Virus genome (UHGV): UHGV-0121436
DNA: 16,685 nucleotides
From: a virus
Strand: one strand, 5' to 3'
The notes beneath the pieces are model-generated. The model was not told the DNA's origin. It was given only the letters and a program-made list of their open reading frames with translations, and ran no database searches. Within the stretch, counting starts at the first letter, position 1, and the number at the start of each line of letters is the position of its first letter. A program made the translations under genes and the position numbers. Of the stretch, positions 3,300 to 11,910 are shown in pieces.

Positions 3300-3533
3300 A
3301 TGCGTAATATTGAGATCCTCACGACTAAAACCGGATCGGATGATGCAGGGCTTAATATTTTACTGACAGTGGCTCGTCTGGAAGAACGCCGGGCAAGGGC
3401 TGAAGCAATGGCAGCTCGCCTTGATAGCCTGGCGTGTCATATCTCATCCCGTCAGCTAAACCACGTGGAAGCAGCAGAACTACTGCGTGTAACTGCTGAA
3501 GCAATCCAGAACGAAGCGCAGGAGATCCACTAA
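3300..3533 (+). CDS. Hypothetical early-operon protein (77 aa)
   Basis: ATG 3300 with AGGAG 8 nt upstream. Its stop TAA overlaps the start of the next gene (TAATG). Confidence 0.55.
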   Translation: MRNIEILTTKTGSDDAGLNILLTVARLEERRARAEAMAARLDSLACHISSRQLNHVEAAELLRVTAEAIQNEAQEIH

Positions 3534-4614: not shown

Positions 4615-7025
4615 GTCATGCCGATATGAACAACTGCTGCGGCTTTAACGAGGCTGCCGCAGCATTCTCATGGAACAGCCCGAAAAAGGCCATTAACCCT
4701 TATCTGGACCCGGCGGAAGTTGCGCCGGTTTCTACGCTTTCAAACCTGATCACTCTGTACGCTGCCGATAACGAGCAGGAACAACTGCGCCGCGAGGCAC
4801 TGAGTGATCAGGTCTGGGAGCGTTATTTCTTTAATGAATCACGTGATCCTGTCCAGCGCGAAATGGAGCAGGATAAGCTCATTAGCCGGGCAAAGCTGGC
4901 GCATGAGCAGCAGCGTTTTAATTCAGACATGGTCATTCTGGCGGACGTCAACGCCCAGCCTTCCCATATCAGCAAGCCGCTGATGCAACGTATTGAATAC
5001 TTCAGCAGCCTGGGCAGGCCAAAGGCTTATTCCCGCTATTTACGTGAGACGATTAAGCCATGTCTGGAACGACTGGAGCATGTACGCGACAGTCAGCTAT
5101 CTGCATCTTTTCGCTTTATGGCAAGCCATGAAGGGCTGGACGGCCTGCTGATCCTGCCTGAAATGAGTCAGGATCAGGTGAAACGCCTGTCCACCCTGGT
5201 AGCTGCGCATATGAGTATGTGCCTTGATGCAGCTTGTGGTGATTTGTATGCCACCGATGACGTTAAGCCAGAAGAAATCCGCAAGACATGGGAAAAGGTG
5301 GCAGCGGAAACCCTGCGTCTGGATGTCATCCCACCTGCGTTTGAGCAACTCCGTCGGAAAAGAAACCGCCGTAAACCCGTGCCCTATGAACTCATTCCGG
5401 GTTCGCTGGCGCGTATGTTGTGCGCCGACTGGTGGTATCGGAAATTATGGAAGATGCGTTGCGAATGGCGGGAAGAGCAGTTGCGCGCTGTTTGCCTGGT
5501 CAGCAAAAAAGCATCTCCTTATGTCAGCTATGAAGCCGTGATGCATAAACGTGAGCAGCGCCGTAAGTCGCTGGAGTTTTTCCGTTCTCATGAACTGGTG
5601 AACGAAGACGGCGACACGCTGGACATGGAGGATGTGGTAAACGCCAGCAGCAGCAACCCTGCGCATCGCCGCAATGAGATGATGGCCTGTGTTAAAGGTC
5701 TGGAGCTTATCGCGGAAATGCGCGGTGACTGCGCCGTTTTCTACACTATCACCTGTCCGTCGCGTTTCCATTCCACGCTAAATAACGGCAGGCCAAACCC
5801 GACCTGGACAAACGCGACGGTAAGACAAAGCAGCGATTATCTGGTCGGCATGTTTGCTGCATTTCGTAAGGCGATGCACAAAGCCGGGTTGCGCTGGTAT
5901 GGCGTGCGGGTGGCTGAGCCGCATCATGATGGCACAGTTCACTGGCACCTGTTGTGTTTCATGCGCAAAAAAGACCGCCGTGCCATCACTGCATTACTGC
6001 GTAAGTTTGCCATCCGTGAAGACCGCGAGGAGCTGGGCAATAACACTGGGCCGCGCTTTAAGTCTGAGTTGATTAACCCGCGCAAAGGAACGCCGACAAG
6101 CTACATCGCGAAATATATCAGTAAGAACATTGACGGTCGTGGTCTGGCTGGCGAGATCAGCAAGGAAACGGGTAAATCTCTGCGTGATAACGCTGAATAC
6201 GTGAATGCCTGGGCGTCTCTGCATCGTGTTCAGCAATTCCGCTTCTTTGGTATTCCGGGGCGTCAGGCTTACCGTGAACTTCGCTTGCTGGCTGGTCAGG
6301 CGGCAAGGCAGCAGGGTGACAAAAAAGCAGGTGTGCCGGTACTGGATAACCCGCGTCTTGATGCCATTCTGGCTGCTGCTGATGCTGGTTGTTTTGCCAC
6401 CTACATCATGAAGCAGGGCGGCGTACTGGTTCCCCGTAAATATCACCTCATCAGAACCGCTTATGAAATCAACGAAGAGCCGACCGCCTATGGCGATCAC
6501 GGCATTCGTATTTATGGCATCTGGTCACCCATTGCAGAGGGCAAGATCTGCACTCATGCAGTGAAGTGGAAAATGGTTCGTAAGGCCGTTGACGTTCAGG
6601 AGGCGGCAGCCGACCAGGGCGCTTGCGCCCCTTGGACTCGTGGCAATAACTGTCCCCTTGCTGAAAATTTGTACCAACAAGGGAAAGACAAATCAGCTGA
6701 TGGGGATACCAGAACGGATATCACCCGCATGGATGACAAGGAATTGCACGATTACCTGCACAGTATGAACAAAAAAGAGCGCCGGGAACTGGCTGCAAGG
6801 TTACGCCTGGTGAAACCGAAACGGCGTAGAGACTACAAACAGCGAATTACAGATCATCAGCGACAGCAGCTCGTCTATGAACTGAAGTCCAGAGGATTTG
6901 ATGGCAGCGAGAAAGAGGTCGATTTACTCCTTCGCGGCGGCAGCATTCCGTCAGGAGCAGGCCTGCGTATTTTCTATCGGAACCAGCGTTTGCAGGAAGA
7001 TGATAAGTGGCGGAACCTGTATTAA
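4611..7025 (+). CDS. A: Replication initiation protein A (rolling-circle nicking endonuclease, P2 gpA-like), 804 aa
   Basis: Large ORF whose start overlaps the dam stop. Contains a histidine-rich [11 protein letters not shown] segment (HUH-type metal site) and [12 protein letters not shown] (candidate catalytic Tyr region). Size and position match P2/186 gene A. Confidence 0.9.
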
Positions 7026-7119
7026 TTACGCGGGTTAACAATTCGTGCTCTTAATAATACCAGGTATATCAGGCTGATGAACGTAAAAAAACGTTTTACA
7101 TCAGTAAGATTATTATATA

Positions 7120-7135
7120 CTGTAAATATAAACAG
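7120..7135. promoter_or_regulatory. LexA (SOS) operator, perfect CTGT-N8-ACAG
   Basis: CTGTAAATATAAACAG at 7120..7135 matches the LexA box consensus CTGT-(AT-rich N8)-ACAG. It lies in an AT-rich promoter-like stretch 44 nt upstream of the ORF starting at 7179. Confidence 0.6.
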
Positions 7136-7178
7136 TGGTTATGCGTACAGTATTGCTTGTGGTGTCATAGGAGGAAAG

Positions 7179-7367
7179 ATGCAGGACTATTTTTTGGAGT
7201 CTTTGAAGCTCCAGCGCATTGATTTTTTTCTTAAGCTTGTAGCGGCTAGTGAGTGTAGTGATGAAGAGAAGGGGCTGGCCCTGCAGTGGGTTTCTGAACT
7301 GACAGATGAACTCATGGCAAAAATCAGAACCCACGAATACAACCGCTCAATGGATGTCATCAGCTGA
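7179..7367 (+). CDS. Small protein (62 aa) in the LexA-controlled module; possible Tum-like antirepressor N-terminal part
   Basis: ATG 7179 preceded by AGGAGGAAAG. Acidic, helical-looking product MQDYFLESLKLQRIDFFLKLVAASECSDEEKGLALQWVSELTDELMAKIRTHEYNRSMDVIS. Sits directly upstream of the DinI-like ORF. Confidence 0.45.
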   Translation: MQDYFLESLKLQRIDFFLKLVAASECSDEEKGLALQWVSELTDELMAKIRTHEYNRSMDVIS

Positions 7368-7377
7368 GGTGACTTTT

Positions 7378-7611
7378 ATGCGCATTGAAATAATGATCGA
7401 TAAAGAGCAGAAGATTAGCCAGTCTACCCTGGACGCCCTTGAATCCGAGCTTTACCGCAATCTGCGCCCCCTGTATCCCAAAACGGTAATTCGCATTCGC
7501 AAAGGTAGCTCTAACGGTGTGGAACTGACCGGACTGCAACTGGACGAAGAAAGGAAGCAAGTGATGAAAATTATGCAGAAGGTGTGGGAAGACGACAGCT
7601 GGCTGCATTAA
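7378..7611 (+). CDS. DinI-family protein (77 aa); Tum/DinI-like SOS-regulated modulator
   Basis: MRIEIMIDKEQKISQSTLDALESELYRNLRPLYPKTVIRIRKGSSNGVELTGLQLDEERKQVMKIMQKVWEDDSWLH aligns by eye with E. coli DinI (MRIEVTI..., DAL..EL, W..D.W C-terminus). GAGG RBS 8 nt upstream. Confidence 0.7.
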   Translation: MRIEIMIDKEQKISQSTLDALESELYRNLRPLYPKTVIRIRKGSSNGVELTGLQLDEERKQVMKIMQKVWEDDSWLH

Positions 7612-7682
7612 GAAACGTTGCCCCCAAGAGGATTCATTCTGATGGGGGACTATTTTGGGCAACGAGTGAAACGAGGCGTTAG

Positions 7683-7720
7683 GTGGACGGCCATTTTGAT
7701 AAGTGATCGTCCGCTTTTTG
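7683..7720 (+). terminator. Possible intrinsic terminator after the DinI-like gene
   Basis: GTGGACG (7683..7689) pairs with CGTCCGC (7708..7714), one G-U pair, followed by TTTTT (7715..7719). The loop is large (18 nt), so this is weak. Confidence 0.3.
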
Positions 7721-7898
7721 TTCTGAGTTCAAGCGATGGATTTAACACACTGGTTGAAGCAGAAGTATCTAAGTTCAATTTATATTATTTGAAGGGCACT
7801 GGTCTGATGTAGTACGATTTTTGCCGGAGATGGCATGTTCTATATTGATCTCATCCATATAATGATTGGTATTATTAGCTTAGTTTAAAGAGGATTGA

Positions 7899-9476
7899 AT
7901 GGATATCAACTATGTTGTTTCAAAAATGGGGTTCGTAGATGATCTTATTAATGCAGGTTCATTTGATTCTGCCTATAAAAATGTAAAGGATATTCTTAAC
8001 GGTATCGATGAGATAAATACAATCAAAGAAAATAGAATAATTATATTATCTAATTTGGCCGGAAATCTTATTGATATCGGAAGTTTTAGTAATGTAAAAA
8101 ATATAGCGGAGGAAGGCTTAAATATCTTTATAAACAATAAAAATGAATTTCTGACTATAATGAAAGAATCCTTATATTACTATAACTTGGCAAATGGAAT
8201 GAGCGCAGTTCTTGATTTTAATCCTAATGACAATGCAGATATTGATAGTTTCATTAAGCTGAATGATGTAAAAAATAATTACTGGAAAGCGTTTAAACTT
8301 TCACAAGAAGATGGATGGGTGCCCCCTGATTTAATAGTTAATCTAGCTAATGTATTAAAAAAACAATATCGTATATCTGAATCAATGGATTATTATGAAC
8401 AAGCAATATCTATTGATAACTCAATTCCTCAGGCGTGGGTAAACAGATCTGAGGCATTAGAATTGCTTAATGAATTATCTACAACATATACATATAAAAT
8501 GATTAAAGAAGTTATTCGAGGTTATGAGTGTGCAATAAAGTCAGGGAAATGTTTTCCTTCATGGAAGGTTGCTCTTCAAAGAAAAATAAAGTACAACGAA
8601 AGTATATTGAGTGAATCATGTGTATATGGCATAGAGGATATAAGTACAGATGAAAGGCTCACGCAGGAGGAGTATGATACTTTATCAAACTACCAGAGGT
8701 TTTGTATAGATAATAATCTAATGTTGTCTGATCATTCGCTATATTGCAATTGTTATGCGTCATCTAAAGATAATATAACTATTGCTACCACCGAGGAAGG
8801 TGTGTTTGGTGATTTTATAGTGCCAATGGAAATGGTGTTAAATAGACTTAAAGCAGAGTATTCCTTAGCACGAAAAATGTTTTTTGAATATAAGGTTGAT
8901 AGTGAGTTTTTTGATGAGGATTCGGAGGTATGTTATTCTGAATTGTATAATGGAGAAATATTGTATGAAAATGTTGAGAAGTTAAGGGTTGCATTTAGAG
9001 CTTGCTTTGGTATCTTGGATAAAATAGCAGTTGCTCTGTGTCAATTATTTGATTTAAAACCAGATAGAGGACATATATACTTTCATAACTTCTGGCGGAT
9101 TAGTGATGAAAAAAGAAAGCTTAAAATAAACAAAATAAATAATAAAGGATTGCTGGGTTTGTTTAGTATTGCTATGGATTTGAATGATAAAAATGGTGAG
9201 CTTGCTTTTTTTAAAGAATGGAGGAATGATTTAGAACATAAACTGTTAGTTATTCACGAGAAAGACATGTTAGTTGATTTATATAATTCTTATGGATTTT
9301 TTGATGAGGTGAGATTTATTGAGAAAGAAAAGTTTGAGAAACAGCTCTTACAACTCATGAAAATTGTGAGATCAGCCGTTATTCTTTTTGTGTTTACCAT
9401 ACGTATAGAGGGGAAAAAAAGTATTCCTAAAGATATGTTGACCATTAAAAATACCATCGAGAGAAAAGTATTGTAG
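7899..9476 (+). CDS. AT-rich 525-aa protein with N-terminal TPR-like helical repeats and C-terminal HEPN-like region; candidate anti-phage / abortive-infection effector
   Basis: Uninterrupted ORF with AGAGGA RBS before ATG 7899. Visibly much lower GC than the flanking phage genes (by eye; not computed). TPR-like segment around YYEQAISIDNSIPQAWVNRSEALELLNEL. C-terminal R-x4-H (RNDLEH, nt 9222..9239) and R-x5-H (RGHIYFH) fit the HEPN R-x4-6-H signature. No Walker A motif seen. Located in the P2 tin/old-equivalent position. Confidence 0.75.
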   Translation: MDINYVVSKMGFVDDLINAGSFDSAYKNVKDILNGIDEINTIKENRIIILSNLAGNLIDIGSFSNVKNIAEEGLNIFINNKNEFLTIMKESLYYYNLANGMSAVLDFNPNDNADIDSFIKLNDVKNNYWKAFKLSQEDGWVPPDLIVNLANVLKKQYRISESMDYYEQAISIDNSIPQAWVNRSEALELLNELSTTYTYKMIKEVIRGYECAIKSGKCFPSWKVALQRKIKYNESILSESCVYGIEDISTDERLTQEEYDTLSNYQRFCIDNNLMLSDHSLYCNCYASSKDNITIATTEEGVFGDFIVPMEMVLNRLKAEYSLARKMFFEYKVDSEFFDEDSEVCYSELYNGEILYENVEKLRVAFRACFGILDKIAVALCQLFDLKPDRGHIYFHNFWRISDEKRKLKINKINNKGLLGLFSIAMDLNDKNGELAFFKEWRNDLEHKLLVIHEKDMLVDLYNSYGFFDEVRFIEKEKFEKQLLQLMKIVRSAVILFVFTIRIEGKKSIPKDMLTIKNTIERKVL

Positions 9477-9798
9477 TATATTTTCATCGAGCGATGAAAC
9501 GGTCTGTTTTTCTTTATAGTTTTGTCATAAAAAAGAGATTTCCTGCTTAAAATTTGGCTATTACAGAGCAACTATGTATGTTCCTCGCTCACAGTAGAGC
9601 TTCATCTTTGTAAGTCTGTATGTTTCGTTTTTCAAGTGGTCATTCAGATACGGACTTTCACTTCTCTTAGACAGTGCATGACTATGCTGCATGAAATCGC
9701 ATGATCGTTTAAGGATCGTTTTTGCTAAGGCTCGCCAGAACTAGCGGGCTTTTACGTAGAACATGCAGGTGCATGAAAACCACTACATAAAGCGGGCA

Positions 9799-9817
9799 GG
9801 CGTGGCGGGGATACGAG
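9799..9817. other. Probable cos site (cohesive-end sequence of P2/186-type phage)
   Basis: GGCGTGGCGGGGATACGAG: the first 12 nt match the 19-nt cohesive end I recall for 186 (GGCGTGGCGGGGAAAGCAT) and it is close to that of P2 (GGCGAGGCGGGGAAAGCAC). It lies upstream of the portal gene 3' end, as expected, in a GC-rich non-coding patch. Confidence 0.45.
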
Positions 9818-10030
9818 CGCGCGCAAAGGGGTTAAATGGCAAAAATCCGGCGCAATCTTCTGCTCGCTGTCGGCTTTAATTGGTGAGGGGGAGGGAATAG
9901 GCGCAAAAAAGAAATGCCCCGCAGAATGCGATCTATACACGCAGAATCGCGGATAACTCTTAAGCTATGATTGACGTACAATTTTACAGGAAGTATTAAA
10001 GTCTCATGTTCATTTTTTCAGGATGATGAC

Positions 10031-10807
10031 ATGTTAGCTGGTACGCGAAGTGCGACGAACGGAAAGGTTTTTGCTAAAGACTGCGAAAAAGAAGAAGGGC
10101 CATTTTTTTGCATTGGATGCAAAAAAGAATTGGTTTTAAAGAAGGGGCGAATTAAAGTTCATCACTTCGCCCATAAGCCCCCGTTTTCTTGCAACAGAGG
10201 TCATGGGGAGACTGAAAAACACCGAGAATGCAAAGAATCTATGTATAACTTGTTGCTTTCAATGCCGAATGTTAGAGATGTTGACATAGAGCATGATCTT
10301 GGTAGTGCTGTAGCTGATGTGTATGCTGTGATAAACAATGTTCCAGTCGCTATTGAAGTACAACGCAGCATTCTTTCCGTAAATGAAATAACAAGACGCA
10401 CCAAAGAATATCATCGTTTAGGTGTACATGTGCTTTGGCTTTCACTGTTCAGCACGCGACTTGTAGAAGATCGCTTTAGCCCATCAGCGTGGGAAAAGTG
10501 GTGTCATGCTACCTATTATGGCAGGGTATATTATTGGCTTTCTGGATTGGATGTGATCCCATATCATTTTTCTGACTATAAATTATATGTTGAAGAAAGT
10601 ACATGGTACGAGTCGGGTGGAAATGAGAGAAGCGCAGGTGGATACTATAAATTTTCAAAACGTTATAAAACGCCACTCGCTGGGCAAAGAGTAAATATAG
10701 CGGAAGACTTTTCGCCTAAAAGAAAAGCAGCATGGAATAGTAAGACTATTTATATACCAGAATGTAGTATTTATTTGGATGGACAGTCAGCGTGGTGGAG
10801 TAAATAA
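10031..10807 (+). CDS. CoiA-like protein (putative PD-(D/E)xK-type nuclease with N-terminal Cys/His cluster), 258 aa
   Basis: ATG 10031 (the track's TTG at 9971 is less likely). Translation has CIGCKKELVLKKGRIKVHHFAHKPPFSC, GETEKHRECKE, ADVYAVINNVPVAIEVQRSILSVNEITRRTKEYHRLGVHVLWL. This order of motifs (C-x2-C...HFAH...GE-x3-H...ADV...AIE-x-Q-x-S...LG-x-VLW) is what I recall for the competence protein CoiA family. Moderately AT-rich; lies between cos and the portal gene. Confidence 0.7.
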   Translation: MLAGTRSATNGKVFAKDCEKEEGPFFCIGCKKELVLKKGRIKVHHFAHKPPFSCNRGHGETEKHRECKESMYNLLLSMPNVRDVDIEHDLGSAVADVYAVINNVPVAIEVQRSILSVNEITRRTKEYHRLGVHVLWLSLFSTRLVEDRFSPSAWEKWCHATYYGRVYYWLSGLDVIPYHFSDYKLYVEESTWYESGGNERSAGGYYKFSKRYKTPLAGQRVNIAEDFSPKRKAAWNSKTIYIPECSIYLDGQSAWWSK

Positions 10808-10814
10808 GAATTGT

Positions 10815-10858
10815 TAATATAAATTCAGCAGCAATTGCTGCTGCATTTATTATATTAA
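10815..10858. terminator. Bidirectional intrinsic terminator between the convergent CoiA-like and portal genes
   Basis: Perfect 18-nt palindrome CAGCAGCAATTGCTGCTG (10826..10843) flanked by A/T-rich runs on both sides. It sits exactly between the stop of the plus-strand ORF (10807) and the stop of the minus-strand portal gene (10855). Confidence 0.55.
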
Positions 10859-11910
10859 CCGTTGTGCTTGTCTTCTGTCAGTCCCAGCGTGTACGGTTCA
10901 AAGCGGATCACTTCTTCGCCCAGCCACTCGTTAAGCTCCTGTAGTCGCTTCTGCAGCGGCATCAGCTCGTTGCGGACAAAGACGCGGCTGGCCTTTTCTA
11001 CATCACCAAAGCCGCCGGTATTGTTGGGAATAATGCCCATCATTTGTGGTGGCACGCGGTGTGCTGCCATCATGTCATCGCGGCTGACATTTTTGATATT
11101 CAGAAATTCATCCTTCGCCGCAACTTCTGACAGAGGAATGATCTGAAGCCCGTCCTTTTTGCCGTTAGGCGAGTACATAAACAGATTGCGGAAGTTGCCA
11201 GGGCCTTTGGCGCTTTTCATCGCATTGCGGAGGTTGTTCACATCCTCCTGGTTTTGCGCGGCATCGGTCATGTACATGATAAAGCCCGCATGACTGCCGT
11301 TAATGTAATATTTGCGTCGGAACAGCGTGGCGGACTCGTTGAGCAGGGCTGACGGAATGGCAGAAAGATAACCGGGCAGGCCGTAAATCTCCTGGTTGAT
11401 ATCCGGTTCCATCAGATGAAAAATGCTGCCTTTCGTGAACTGATACGGCTGGGTTGTCATACCGTATTGCACAAACCAGTAGGTATCCAGGTCTAACCCG
11501 CGTCGGGTGTATTTTGCCAGCGCAGGCTCAAGGGCGATAACTTCACCGAAGCGGTTCGTGCGTTTCTCCAGGTAGGCGTTACCAAATACCAGGTAGTCCT
11601 GCACAAAACGTGAAAAAGCCTGCTGGCTGAGCAGCGGGTGAGGGATATAGGTACTGGTCAGAATGTTGCACTTTACTGCAATCGGGGAACTGTGATGCAC
11701 GGCAGCGCGGAAGGTGCGCGCCAGTCCGTCAAAGCTGACGGGCGGCTCATACCAACGGTCCATCTGTACGCATTCCACATAGTCCAGTAATTCTCGGCGG
11801 TCCAGAACAGGAACGGGATCGCCGAAGCTGAATGCTTCGGCTGTAGTTTGACTTTTAAGCTGGATCTGATTCGTCGCCGCAGCGCGGTTCTTCTTACTCT
11901 TTCCCATCAA
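10855..11910 (-). CDS. Q: Portal protein (P2 gpQ-like), 351 aa
   Basis: Minus-strand ORF starting MMGKSKKNRAAATNQ...; size, position next to cos and adjacency to the terminase ATPase gene match P2 Q. Its start overlaps the stop of gene P (ATGA). Confidence 0.88.
   Translation of the reverse strand: MMGKSKKNRAAATNQIQLKSQTTAEAFSFGDPVPVLDRRELLDYVECVQMDRWYEPPVSFDGLARTFRAAVHHSSPIAVKCNILTSTYIPHPLLSQQAFSRFVQDYLVFGNAYLEKRTNRFGEVIALEPALAKYTRRGLDLDTYWFVQYGMTTQPYQFTKGSIFHLMEPDINQEIYGLPGYLSAIPSALLNESATLFRRKYYINGSHAGFIMYMTDAAQNQEDVNNLRNAMKSAKGPGNFRNLFMYSPNGKKDGLQIIPLSEVAAKDEFLNIKNVSRDDMMAAHRVPPQMMGIIPNNTGGFGDVEKASRVFVRNELMPLQKRLQELNEWLGEEVIRFEPYTLGLTEDKHNG

Follow-up and report, generated by a model that had tools for sequence, protein, structure and literature searches.

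Two cargo slots on either side of cos in the gene A-portal Q interval of a P2-family, 186/Fels-2-like prophage

The interval between the replication gene A and the portal gene Q of UHGV virus genome UHGV-0121436 carries two cargo genes, one for a protein with tetratricopeptide repeats (TPR) and a HEPN ribonuclease domain and one for a CoiA-like nuclease, with the predicted cohesive-end site (cos) between them. The whole stretch of 16,685 nucleotides (nt) that was analyzed is referred to as the window and is a segment of a P2-family, 186/Fels-2-like prophage. This arrangement raises the question whether the two neighbors are one functional system or two unrelated passengers, and what fills the non-coding DNA that separates them. 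The interval, 3,829 bp from 7026 to 10854, is best read as the known hypervariable gpA-gpQ accessory (“defence”) hotspot of such a prophage, in which two independent cargo slots are split by a conserved block around cos, and a probability of roughly 80% is given to this reading. Gene calls and Pfam matches agreed with the coordinates and the gene content given in an earlier note on this DNA, and the three modules named there (a DinI/Tum-like pair, the HEPN gene, and the CoiA-like gene) were recovered together with its position for cos, the latter by alignment to P2 and 186.

A variable gpA-gpQ locus of the P2 family (old/tin, the “TO region”) was reportedly described by Odegrip in 2006. The presence of cos within the interval, with gpA and gpQ at its sides, matches the hotspot of PMC9122126 and PMC9519451. 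For E. coli, Rousset 2022 (PMC9122126) reported 18,150 gpA-gpQ loci in 1,650 gene arrangements with a mean length of 3.2 kb, and named the locus a defence hotspot adjoining cos. It is P2 hotspot #1 in Vassallo 2022 (PMC9519451), and one single hotspot between GpA and GpQ in Nucleic Acids Research 2026 (PMC13586616) and in bioRxiv 2024.10.15.618418. Against the mean of 3.2 kb (PMC9122126), the 3.8 kb found here are not unusual, and the description of the interval as expanded was not upheld. The likeness to the P2-family hotspot lies in the position between replication endonuclease and portal, the adjoining cos, the great diversity of cargo among near-identical prophages, and the known defence systems within that cargo. 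While all of these publications (PMC9122126, PMC9519451, PMC13586616, and bioRxiv 2024.10.15.618418) handle gpA-gpQ as one locus, two independently varying slots were found here. The locus is textbook phage-borne defence cargo and its existence is not news; the hotspot itself is already known, and what is new, the internal two-slot structure and the junction at cos, amounts to modest refinements of published work.

The comparison of related prophages that the earlier note had proposed was carried out, and the HEPN and CoiA-like genes were never together in the relatives sampled. A related interval was present in about 1,280 of 5,426 complete E. coli genomes; of all 5,426, the HEPN gene occurred in 11 (at ≥99.6% identity), the CoiA-like gene in 1 (at 100%), and both in 0. 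Look-ups of the identical proteins in public assemblies gave 24 contigs for each, with 10 non-redundant places listed for each. In the places listed, the identical HEPN protein is combined with at least 7 different post-cos cargos: a 98-amino-acid (aa) open reading frame (ORF), STM3845 with a reverse transcriptase (RT), a 554-aa ORF, an insertion sequence with GmrSD, a 585-aa RT, AIPR, and AAA_21 with a 287-aa product. The identical CoiA-like protein follows an empty pre-cos slot in 10/10 of its listed places, where DinI, 436 bp, and the CoiA-like gene succeed each other. Other prophages pair DarTG with AIPR, TIR with AIPR, and RNase-A-like/CdiI with a hypothetical or HNH gene; the pre-cos partners of AIPR thus number at least three (HEPN, DarTG, and TIR). 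The combination of HEPN and CoiA-like genes was found in no other record among the E. coli genomes and the places listed for the identical proteins. Around distant homologues of either gene, the other gene was not nearby and no conserved partner was present in the neighborhoods examined.

These results bear on the possibility that the HEPN and CoiA-like genes are one two-component system (e.g., RNase and DNase, or toxin and partner) that is split only in packaged DNA. The two genes do share a strand, with 554 bp between them, and a nuclease is predicted for each. However, they were not together in any relative sampled, each occurs alone or with many other partners, the window is a recombinant with its junction between them, and neither a strong terminator nor a conserved packaging site is expected inside an operon. 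The earlier note had named the lack of co-occurrence in related prophages as evidence against a pair, and because the genes never co-occur in the related prophages sampled, a functionally paired system is very improbable. Two independent single-gene modules, which the earlier note had also considered, are supported by the lack of co-occurrence and by the varied partners.

The independence of the two slots was also visible in viral contigs. A scan of IMG/VR with a 26-nt string of cos and GCGCGC retrieved at least 80 contigs, in which the distance from DinI to cos ranged from 203 to 3,217 bp and the distance from cos to the portal anchor from 173 to 3,544 bp. At least 24 clusters of pre-cos cassettes were distinguished among 54 sequences and at least 45 clusters of post-cos cassettes among 55. 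Pairing is combinatorial in the contigs listed, as one pre-cos type appears with at least 8 post-cos types and one post-cos type with differing pre-cos types. The HEPN gene itself occupies the pre-cos position in three P2-like contigs of IMG/VR with three different post-cos lengths, and occurs in non-P2 viral contigs too. In a small and crude comparison that gives a trend only (79 sequences with 67 haplotypes), 21/147 pairs with the same pre-cos cassette had one haplotype in common over the 126 bp left of cos vs 2.2 expected, and 0/5,000 permutations reached the observed value. The haplotype of these 126 bp was not clearly linked to post-cos cargo (1/9 pairs, that pair being near-identical phage). 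This pattern of linkage agrees with cos as the boundary between two independently assorting units.

Cassette boundaries were defined as the blastn breakpoints of the window against related loci (L001-L030), and they are sharp at ~7740, ~9580, 9824, and ~10890 (Table 1). The HEPN cassette is self-contained and measures 1.84 kb at ~30% guanine-cytosine (GC) vs ~52% GC in gene A, and the post-cos cassette 1.07 kb. In prophages of the empty-slot type the cos block corresponds to 9673-9824. Variable DNA starts 7 bp past the cohesive end, straight after GCGCGC, and the P4-satellite hotspot clones (PMC9122126 supplement) diverge at the identical point, directly after GCGCGC. In P2 the pre-cos slot holds old/tin and in 186 it holds orf97, and the post-cos slot is empty in both phages. 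With these boundaries the 554-bp non-coding stretch (9477-10030), which the earlier note had left to be explained, is accounted for, because they divide it into the 3' end of the HEPN cassette (9477-9579), the block of cos and terminase recognition (9580-9824), and the promoter/leader of the CoiA cassette (9825-10030). No conserved ORF is present in 9477-10030, and a search of 6900-11000 against Rfam at a permissive E-value gave no match, so no known small RNA or riboswitch accounts for the gap.

Several smaller points concern the edges of these cassettes. The last ~12 codons of portal Q (10855-10890) travel with the post-cos cassette and homology to prophages with other cargo resumes only at ~10890-10950, which puts the mosaic boundary within an essential gene. 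ORFs across cos (e.g., 9763-9879), which are called pseudogene or hypothetical in some RefSeq records, were judged spurious. An ORF of 56/64 aa at 7618-7812 was considered as an antitoxin or partner of the HEPN protein and rejected; it is called inconsistently among assemblies and is probably no real gene, because it straddles the boundary between conserved block and cassette at ~7740.

Table 1. Features in and around the gene A-portal Q interval, in order of their position in the window.
Feature	Position	Strand	Basis and remarks
Replication gene A, 804 aa	4611-7025	+	Pfam Phage_GPA, E 1.4e-127; left hotspot boundary
Conserved left block	7026-~7740	+	Common to relatives regardless of cargo; ends at 7621 in CoiA-type empty-slot prophages
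LexA box CTGTAAATATAAACAG, perfect CTGT-N8-ACAG	7120-7135	+	Sole match in the window; predicted by sequence
62-aa ORF, phrog_698	7179-7367	+	PHROG match, E 3.6e-38; first gene past the LexA box
DinI-like protein, 77 aa	7378-7611	+	PF06183, E 6.6e-23
Pre-cos HEPN cassette	~7741-9579	+	Breakpoints vs DarTG, TIR, and RNase-A-like prophages (L028-L030); GC profile
TPR and HEPN(LA2681) protein, 525 aa, identical to WP_000354145	7899-9476	+	PF18733, E 1.8e-38; TPR profile matches
Conserved cos block, ~245 bp	9580-9824	+	blastn; alignment with P2, 186, and P4; P4 clone sequences in PMC9122126 supplement
Recombination junction interval, HEPN-type left arm/CoiA-type right arm	9762-9826	.	Pattern of single-nucleotide polymorphisms; 65 bp, spans cos
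Predicted 19-nt cohesive end GGCGTGGCGGGGATACGAG	9799-9817	+	Aligns with annotated cos of P2 and 186; equals SEN8 19-mer
Post-cos CoiA cassette (leader, CoiA-like gene, terminator, last ~12 codons of Q)	9825-~10890	+	HEPN-type homology stops at 9824-9826
Short CoiA-like PD-(D/E)XK nuclease, 258 aa, identical to WP_117255857	10031-10807	+	CoiA_N and CoiA_nuc above Pfam gathering scores
Bidirectional intrinsic terminator, counterpart of tQ/tW	10826-10843	.	Terminator scan; fold -18.6 kcal/mol, z -5.3
Portal gene Q	10855-11910	-	Pfam Phage_portal; RefSeq annotation of identical loci; right hotspot boundary

By sequence comparison, the window is a recombinant of HEPN-type and CoiA-type prophages. 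Up to 9824, its identity with the HEPN-type prophage of strain EC100 is 100%. Against CoiA-type prophages, 8 single-nucleotide polymorphisms (SNPs) were found in 9681-9761 and 0 in 9762-9826, after which ~99.9% identity extends through the CoiA cassette. Identity is 99.5% between the left arm and a HEPN-type prophage (L005) and 99.2% between the right arm and a CoiA-type prophage (L021). The SNP pattern therefore places the junction in a segment of at most 65 bp that contains cos. It would be a different matter if the combination in the window were an assembly chimera, or if cos lay elsewhere, so that the two-slot picture were artefactual; no other record with both genes was found, and the cohesive ends are placed by homology only. 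Such an artefact is hardly credible, since the junction falls within ~150 bp over which identity is 94-100% in both parental types, the arms are continuous with normal prophage backbones, the two-slot layout recurs in dozens of complete genomes and phage isolates that are independent of one another, SEN8 among them, and the cos core aligns with the annotated ends of P2 and 186.

For the placement of cos, the circular junctions of P2 and 186 were built from their GenBank records, in which the cohesive ends are annotated, and aligned with the window. The predicted cohesive end shares 15/19 bases with the 186 cos GGCGTGGCGGGGAAAGCAT; the first 12 are all identical and 4 of the last 7 differ. The left flank CATGCAnnTGCATnAAAACC...AAAGCGGGC and the right flank GCGCGC are kept in P2, 186, a P4-like satellite, and the window, and a core of ~55 bp in the cos block is common to P2, 186, and P4. 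The 19-mer is identical to the start of the record of Salmonella phage SEN8, which its depositors labelled “putative cos site”, and is present in at least 80 viral contigs of IMG/VR. Because the homologies with the ends of P2, 186, and SEN8 agree, the prediction of cos at 9799-9817 is well supported.

Two further observations concern the surroundings of cos. TGCAT/CATGCA repeats lie to its left in 9620-9798 (e.g., GTGCATGAC, GCTGCATGAAATCGCAT, and CATGCAGGTGCATGAAAACC), and their positions are kept in P2, 186, the P4-like satellite, and this prophage despite diverged surroundings; they may be recognition elements of the small terminase subunit. The contig IMGVR_UViG_3300011853_000021 contains two copies of the 26-nt string of cos and GCGCGC, at 3440-3465 (-) and 6704-6729 (+), ~3.2 kb apart, and this double cos in opposite orientation may stem from misassembly or from an inverted duplication near cos.

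In lambda-type genetics, markers that flank cos are neighbors in the prophage and stand at opposite ends of the packaged or vegetative map. By analogy with these textbook rules, the slots at this locus might be re-assorted through cos itself. If two relatives that replicate together exchanged DNA once anywhere in the ~30-kb backbone and were then packaged from cos to cos, the flanking slots would be re-assorted, and the apparent junction would fall at cos. The slots would behave as unlinked loci though they are 245 bp apart in the prophage, and their free assortment would arise because cos is the point at which the two ends of the linear genome are separated and joined again.

The cargo upstream of cos belongs to the LA2681 family of HEPN proteins. 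The profile PF18733 (HEPN_LA2681) covers residues 309-504 with 132.4 bits vs a curated cut-off of 27. Residues 442-447 (nt 9222-9239) carry an R-N-x-x-E-H motif (R442-N-D-L-E-H447), of which R442, N443, E446, and H447 are invariant across 47 aligned homologues and represent the HEPN R-x4-H motif. The AlphaFold (AF2) model is all-helical with a predicted local distance difference test score (pLDDT) of 88, and its N-terminal half is a TPR solenoid. Homologues of ~525 aa share 74-85% identity in Enterobacterales (Enterobacter, Yersinia, Salmonella, Erwinia, and Cronobacter) and ~40% in Vibrio, Pseudomonas, Cellvibrio, and others. Distant homologues adjoin AbiEii, Fic, a HigBA-like pair, and ArdA, or a Cap4 nuclease in a Tn7-like element, or a PAAR toxin and an integrase, with no conserved neighbor gene in the neighborhoods examined. 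In Anantharaman 2013 (PMC3710099) the LA2681 family is described as “fused to TPR” with its catalytic motif conserved. The window protein resembles that family (PMC3710099) in its PF18733 match, its invariant R-x4-H, its TPR fusion as listed there, and its occurrence as a stand-alone gene in mobile or defence contexts. To the HEPN RNases of abortive infection (AbiD/F/J, ApeA, and RnlA-type) it is alike by its HEPN domain, and no PADLOC model matched it at a meaningful E-value. No experimental function was found in the literature for any LA2681 member. From domains and context, the protein most likely acts alone as an RNase of abortive infection that is coupled to a sensor, and its TPR array would keep the HEPN RNase off until a phage-derived ligand binds. 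The exact protein (WP_000354145) is already contained in Table S5A of PMC9122126, beside several different partners. In E. coli ECONIH5 (L003 4874-6415) the gene is annotated with 513 instead of 525 aa and the nucleotide match is one base shorter, which suggests a frameshifted C-terminus in this copy.

The cargo downstream of cos encodes a short nuclease with both CoiA domains. CoiA_N and CoiA_nuc scored 45.4 bits (cut-off 26.3) and 41.6 bits (cut-off 20.3), the CoiA_nuc match covering positions 1-79 of the 158 in the profile only. Zinc-finger residues were located at C27, C30, H44, and H48 and predicted catalytic residues at D96 (nt 10316-10318) and E109 (nt 10355-10357); C27, C30, H44, H48, and C54 of the zinc finger as well as E87, D96, E109, and Q111 are invariant in the CoiA-like family. 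In a confident structure model the core has a PD-(D/E)XK fold, with D96 and E109 in predicted strands 94-101 and 104-110. CoiA itself (bioRxiv 10.1101/2024.02.06.579203) is restricted to Bacillota, has an N-terminal zinc finger and the catalytic pair D95/E105 in S. pneumoniae, and resolves transformation D-loops. The window protein shares with Bacillota CoiA (PF06054/PF25164) an N-terminal zinc finger followed by a PD-(D/E)XK core, with the Asp in beta2 and the Glu in beta3 at nearly the same positions (D96/E109 vs D95/E105). It differs in its length of 258 aa, its other, beta-rich C-terminal half, and its prophage location outside Bacillota and the competence regulon. Because the profile is matched over half its length, the C-terminal half is different, and the gene lies in an enterobacterial prophage, this is a CoiA-like nuclease and no orthologue of the competence protein CoiA.

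Proteins of this ~256-aa CoiA-like family share 50-65% identity and are scattered over Proteobacteria, cyanobacteria, and other phyla. A gene of 60% identity occupies the same slot between cos and portal in a distant P2-like prophage of Pantoea (GCA_026541045.1, L031 4761-6847), the portal and terminase of which are 63 and 68% identical to those of the window, respectively. The similar divergence of gene and backbone hints at long residence on the phage backbone rather than recent acquisition. Other homologues were found in a lambdoid prophage beside Endonuclease_1 and GmrSD_N, in a cyanobacterium near antitoxin and HNH genes, in a Kistimonas prophage, and in several non-P2 viral contigs. As judged from domains and context, the protein is most likely a structure-specific anti-phage endonuclease that, guided by its zinc finger, would attack the DNA of an invading phage at branched or single-stranded intermediates of replication and recombination. 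PD-lambda-4B (Vassallo 2022) was considered as a precedent for a CoiA-domain defence protein and rejected, as the common part is the N-terminal zinc ribbon only; PD-lambda-4 comprises two genes, including one for an ATPase, which has no counterpart here.

The first module of the interval, described earlier as a LexA-controlled DinI/Tum-like pair, stood up in part. Control by LexA is predicted by the perfect box upstream of the 62-aa ORF and the DinI-like gene, and the DinI-like protein shares 41% identity with 186 Tum over the C-terminal half of the latter (residues 71-145). However, the 62-aa ORF showed no similarity to the N-terminal half of 186 Tum and does not qualify as the Tum N-terminus. 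The box occupies the place of the LexA site of the 186 p95 promoter, and the 186 record annotates p95 and a LexA site upstream of tum. The module resembles the 186 SOS operon (p95-LexA-tum-orf97) in the LexA box before the first gene after A, the DinI-like C-terminus, and co-oriented downstream cargo (orf97). Unlike in 186, full-length Tum is absent and replaced or split into an unrelated 62-aa ORF and a stand-alone DinI-like protein. According to the annotation of the 186 record, orf97 sits in the same slot, is part of the SOS operon, and, expressed from a plasmid, prevents infection by 186.

Transcription signals for the two cargo genes were sought as well. A scan for sigma-70 promoters found sites in no greater number than in shuffled sequence and none convincing upstream of the HEPN or the CoiA-like gene. 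Neither the hairpin that follows DinI, which is weak (z -1.55), nor the one past the HEPN gene is significantly stable. The terminator between the CoiA-like gene and portal Q is strong. TTGACG-17-TATTAA at 9971-9999, spotted by eye, is a guess at a promoter of the CoiA-like gene. An imperfect direct repeat, CGCAGAATGCGAT ... CGCAGAATCGCGG at 9915-9955, lies ~80-115 bp upstream of the CoiA-like start and before this candidate, and could be an operator.

Several points weigh against the reading of the interval as a defence hotspot with two slots that assort independently at cos. The cut positions of cos rest on homology, and an ordinary homologous crossover in the 150-245-bp cos block looks identical at the resolution of 65 bp. 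Among the IMG/VR contigs, 3/48 pairs with the same pre-cos cassette share the post-cos cassette vs 0.4 expected, an excess that is probably due to near-identical phages. The HEPN gene could be read through from the LexA-controlled promoter, because the scan gave no strong sigma-70 promoter and only a weak hairpin follows DinI, and would then be induced by the SOS response rather than expressed in the lysogen. Neither cargo protein gave a meaningful match to a PADLOC-DB v2 model, the best scores being 3.5e-4 for TPR, 0.074 for Csx1/Csm6, and 0.0047 for DruB (zinc-finger region only). PADLOC models are expected to include ApeA and the PD-T4/T7/lambda systems. Scans of both proteins against NCBIfam and PHROG returned no informative family beyond those of Pfam, and no anti-phage activity was found in the literature for a LA2681-type HEPN or a full-length CoiA-like protein. 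Among other P2/P4 hotspot candidates, Table S2B of PMC9122126 (“additional tested systems”) already lists pFR83 “HEPN-TPR” and pFR103 “Putative HEPN”.

Both entries were compared with the HEPN protein of the window. The idea that pFR103 represents an earlier assay of this protein was rejected, as the listed protein is a different sequence. For pFR83 (P4 locus, ATCC 8739), a distant DNA search found no diverged copy of the HEPN gene in a P4 context.

The catalytic motifs of both proteins are intact and invariant and their structure models are confident, and from domains and context we infer a defence role for each gene. The stronger proposal is that cos turns the gpA-gpQ hotspot into two genetically unlinked hotspots and that each cargo represents a new anti-phage system of one gene (an LA2681 HEPN RNase gated by TPR, and a short CoiA-like nuclease cutting phage recombination or replication intermediates); it is put forward tentatively and is, on balance, doubtful. 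If it were true, P2-like phages could shuffle pairs of defence cargo combinatorially.

One or both genes might instead serve the phage itself, the CoiA-like protein as a resolvase or as a homing-type endonuclease that spreads its cassette, and the HEPN protein as a toxin for host shut-off or addiction, induced by the SOS response through transcription that continues from the LexA-controlled promoter. The 60%-identical gene in the same slot of the Pantoea prophage, next to a similarly diverged portal and terminase, is compatible with long residence on the backbone; CoiA-like genes also lie at the borders of replication and morphogenesis modules in other phage contigs, and CoiA proper resolves D-loops (10.1101/2024.02.06.579203). 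The HEPN gene points the same way as the LexA/DinI unit, with only a weak hairpin between them, and orf97 in the same slot of 186 belongs to the SOS operon. Against this, the genes are rare and dispensable in close relatives, as they occur in 11 and 1 of the about 1,280 prophage-carrying E. coli genomes. The same slots hold the validated defence systems DarTG, retron-like RTs, AIPR, GmrSD, and TIR, and HEPN homologues occur in neighborhoods that resemble defence islands. For a single homing element, the cargo of the slots is far too diverse. A function for the phage itself is therefore considered unlikely, though for the CoiA-like protein it is a serious alternative, and accessory cargo in two independent slots remains the preferred reading.

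For this reading, the comparison gives a clean negative on whether hotspot neighbors are one system. It bears on defence prediction by guilt-by-association, because tables of gene arrangements that span cos mix two independent slots. It also yields two compact single-gene candidates with intact catalytic motifs that current defence-finding models miss, the TPR-HEPN(LA2681) protein and the ~256-aa CoiA-like nuclease family, the latter being found in many phyla and often prophage-borne. The breakpoint 7 bp past the cohesive end, common with the P4 satellite, and the junction at cos suggest a testable mechanism for rapid combinatorial shuffling of defence genes in cos phages.

Outside the interval, the prophage carries the large terminase P, the scaffold O, the capsid N, and the small terminase beyond portal Q, and a 186-type CI repressor (1262-1837, -) and CII/CP76 ahead of gene A. 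The CI repressor gene matches Phage_CI_repr and Phage_CI_C. It lies in a segment of low GC (34-40% in 1000-1850), so that the composition of the immunity region is unlike that of the remaining prophage, and two small unannotated minus-strand ORFs (701-961 and 1031-1246) are placed in the same low-GC segment.

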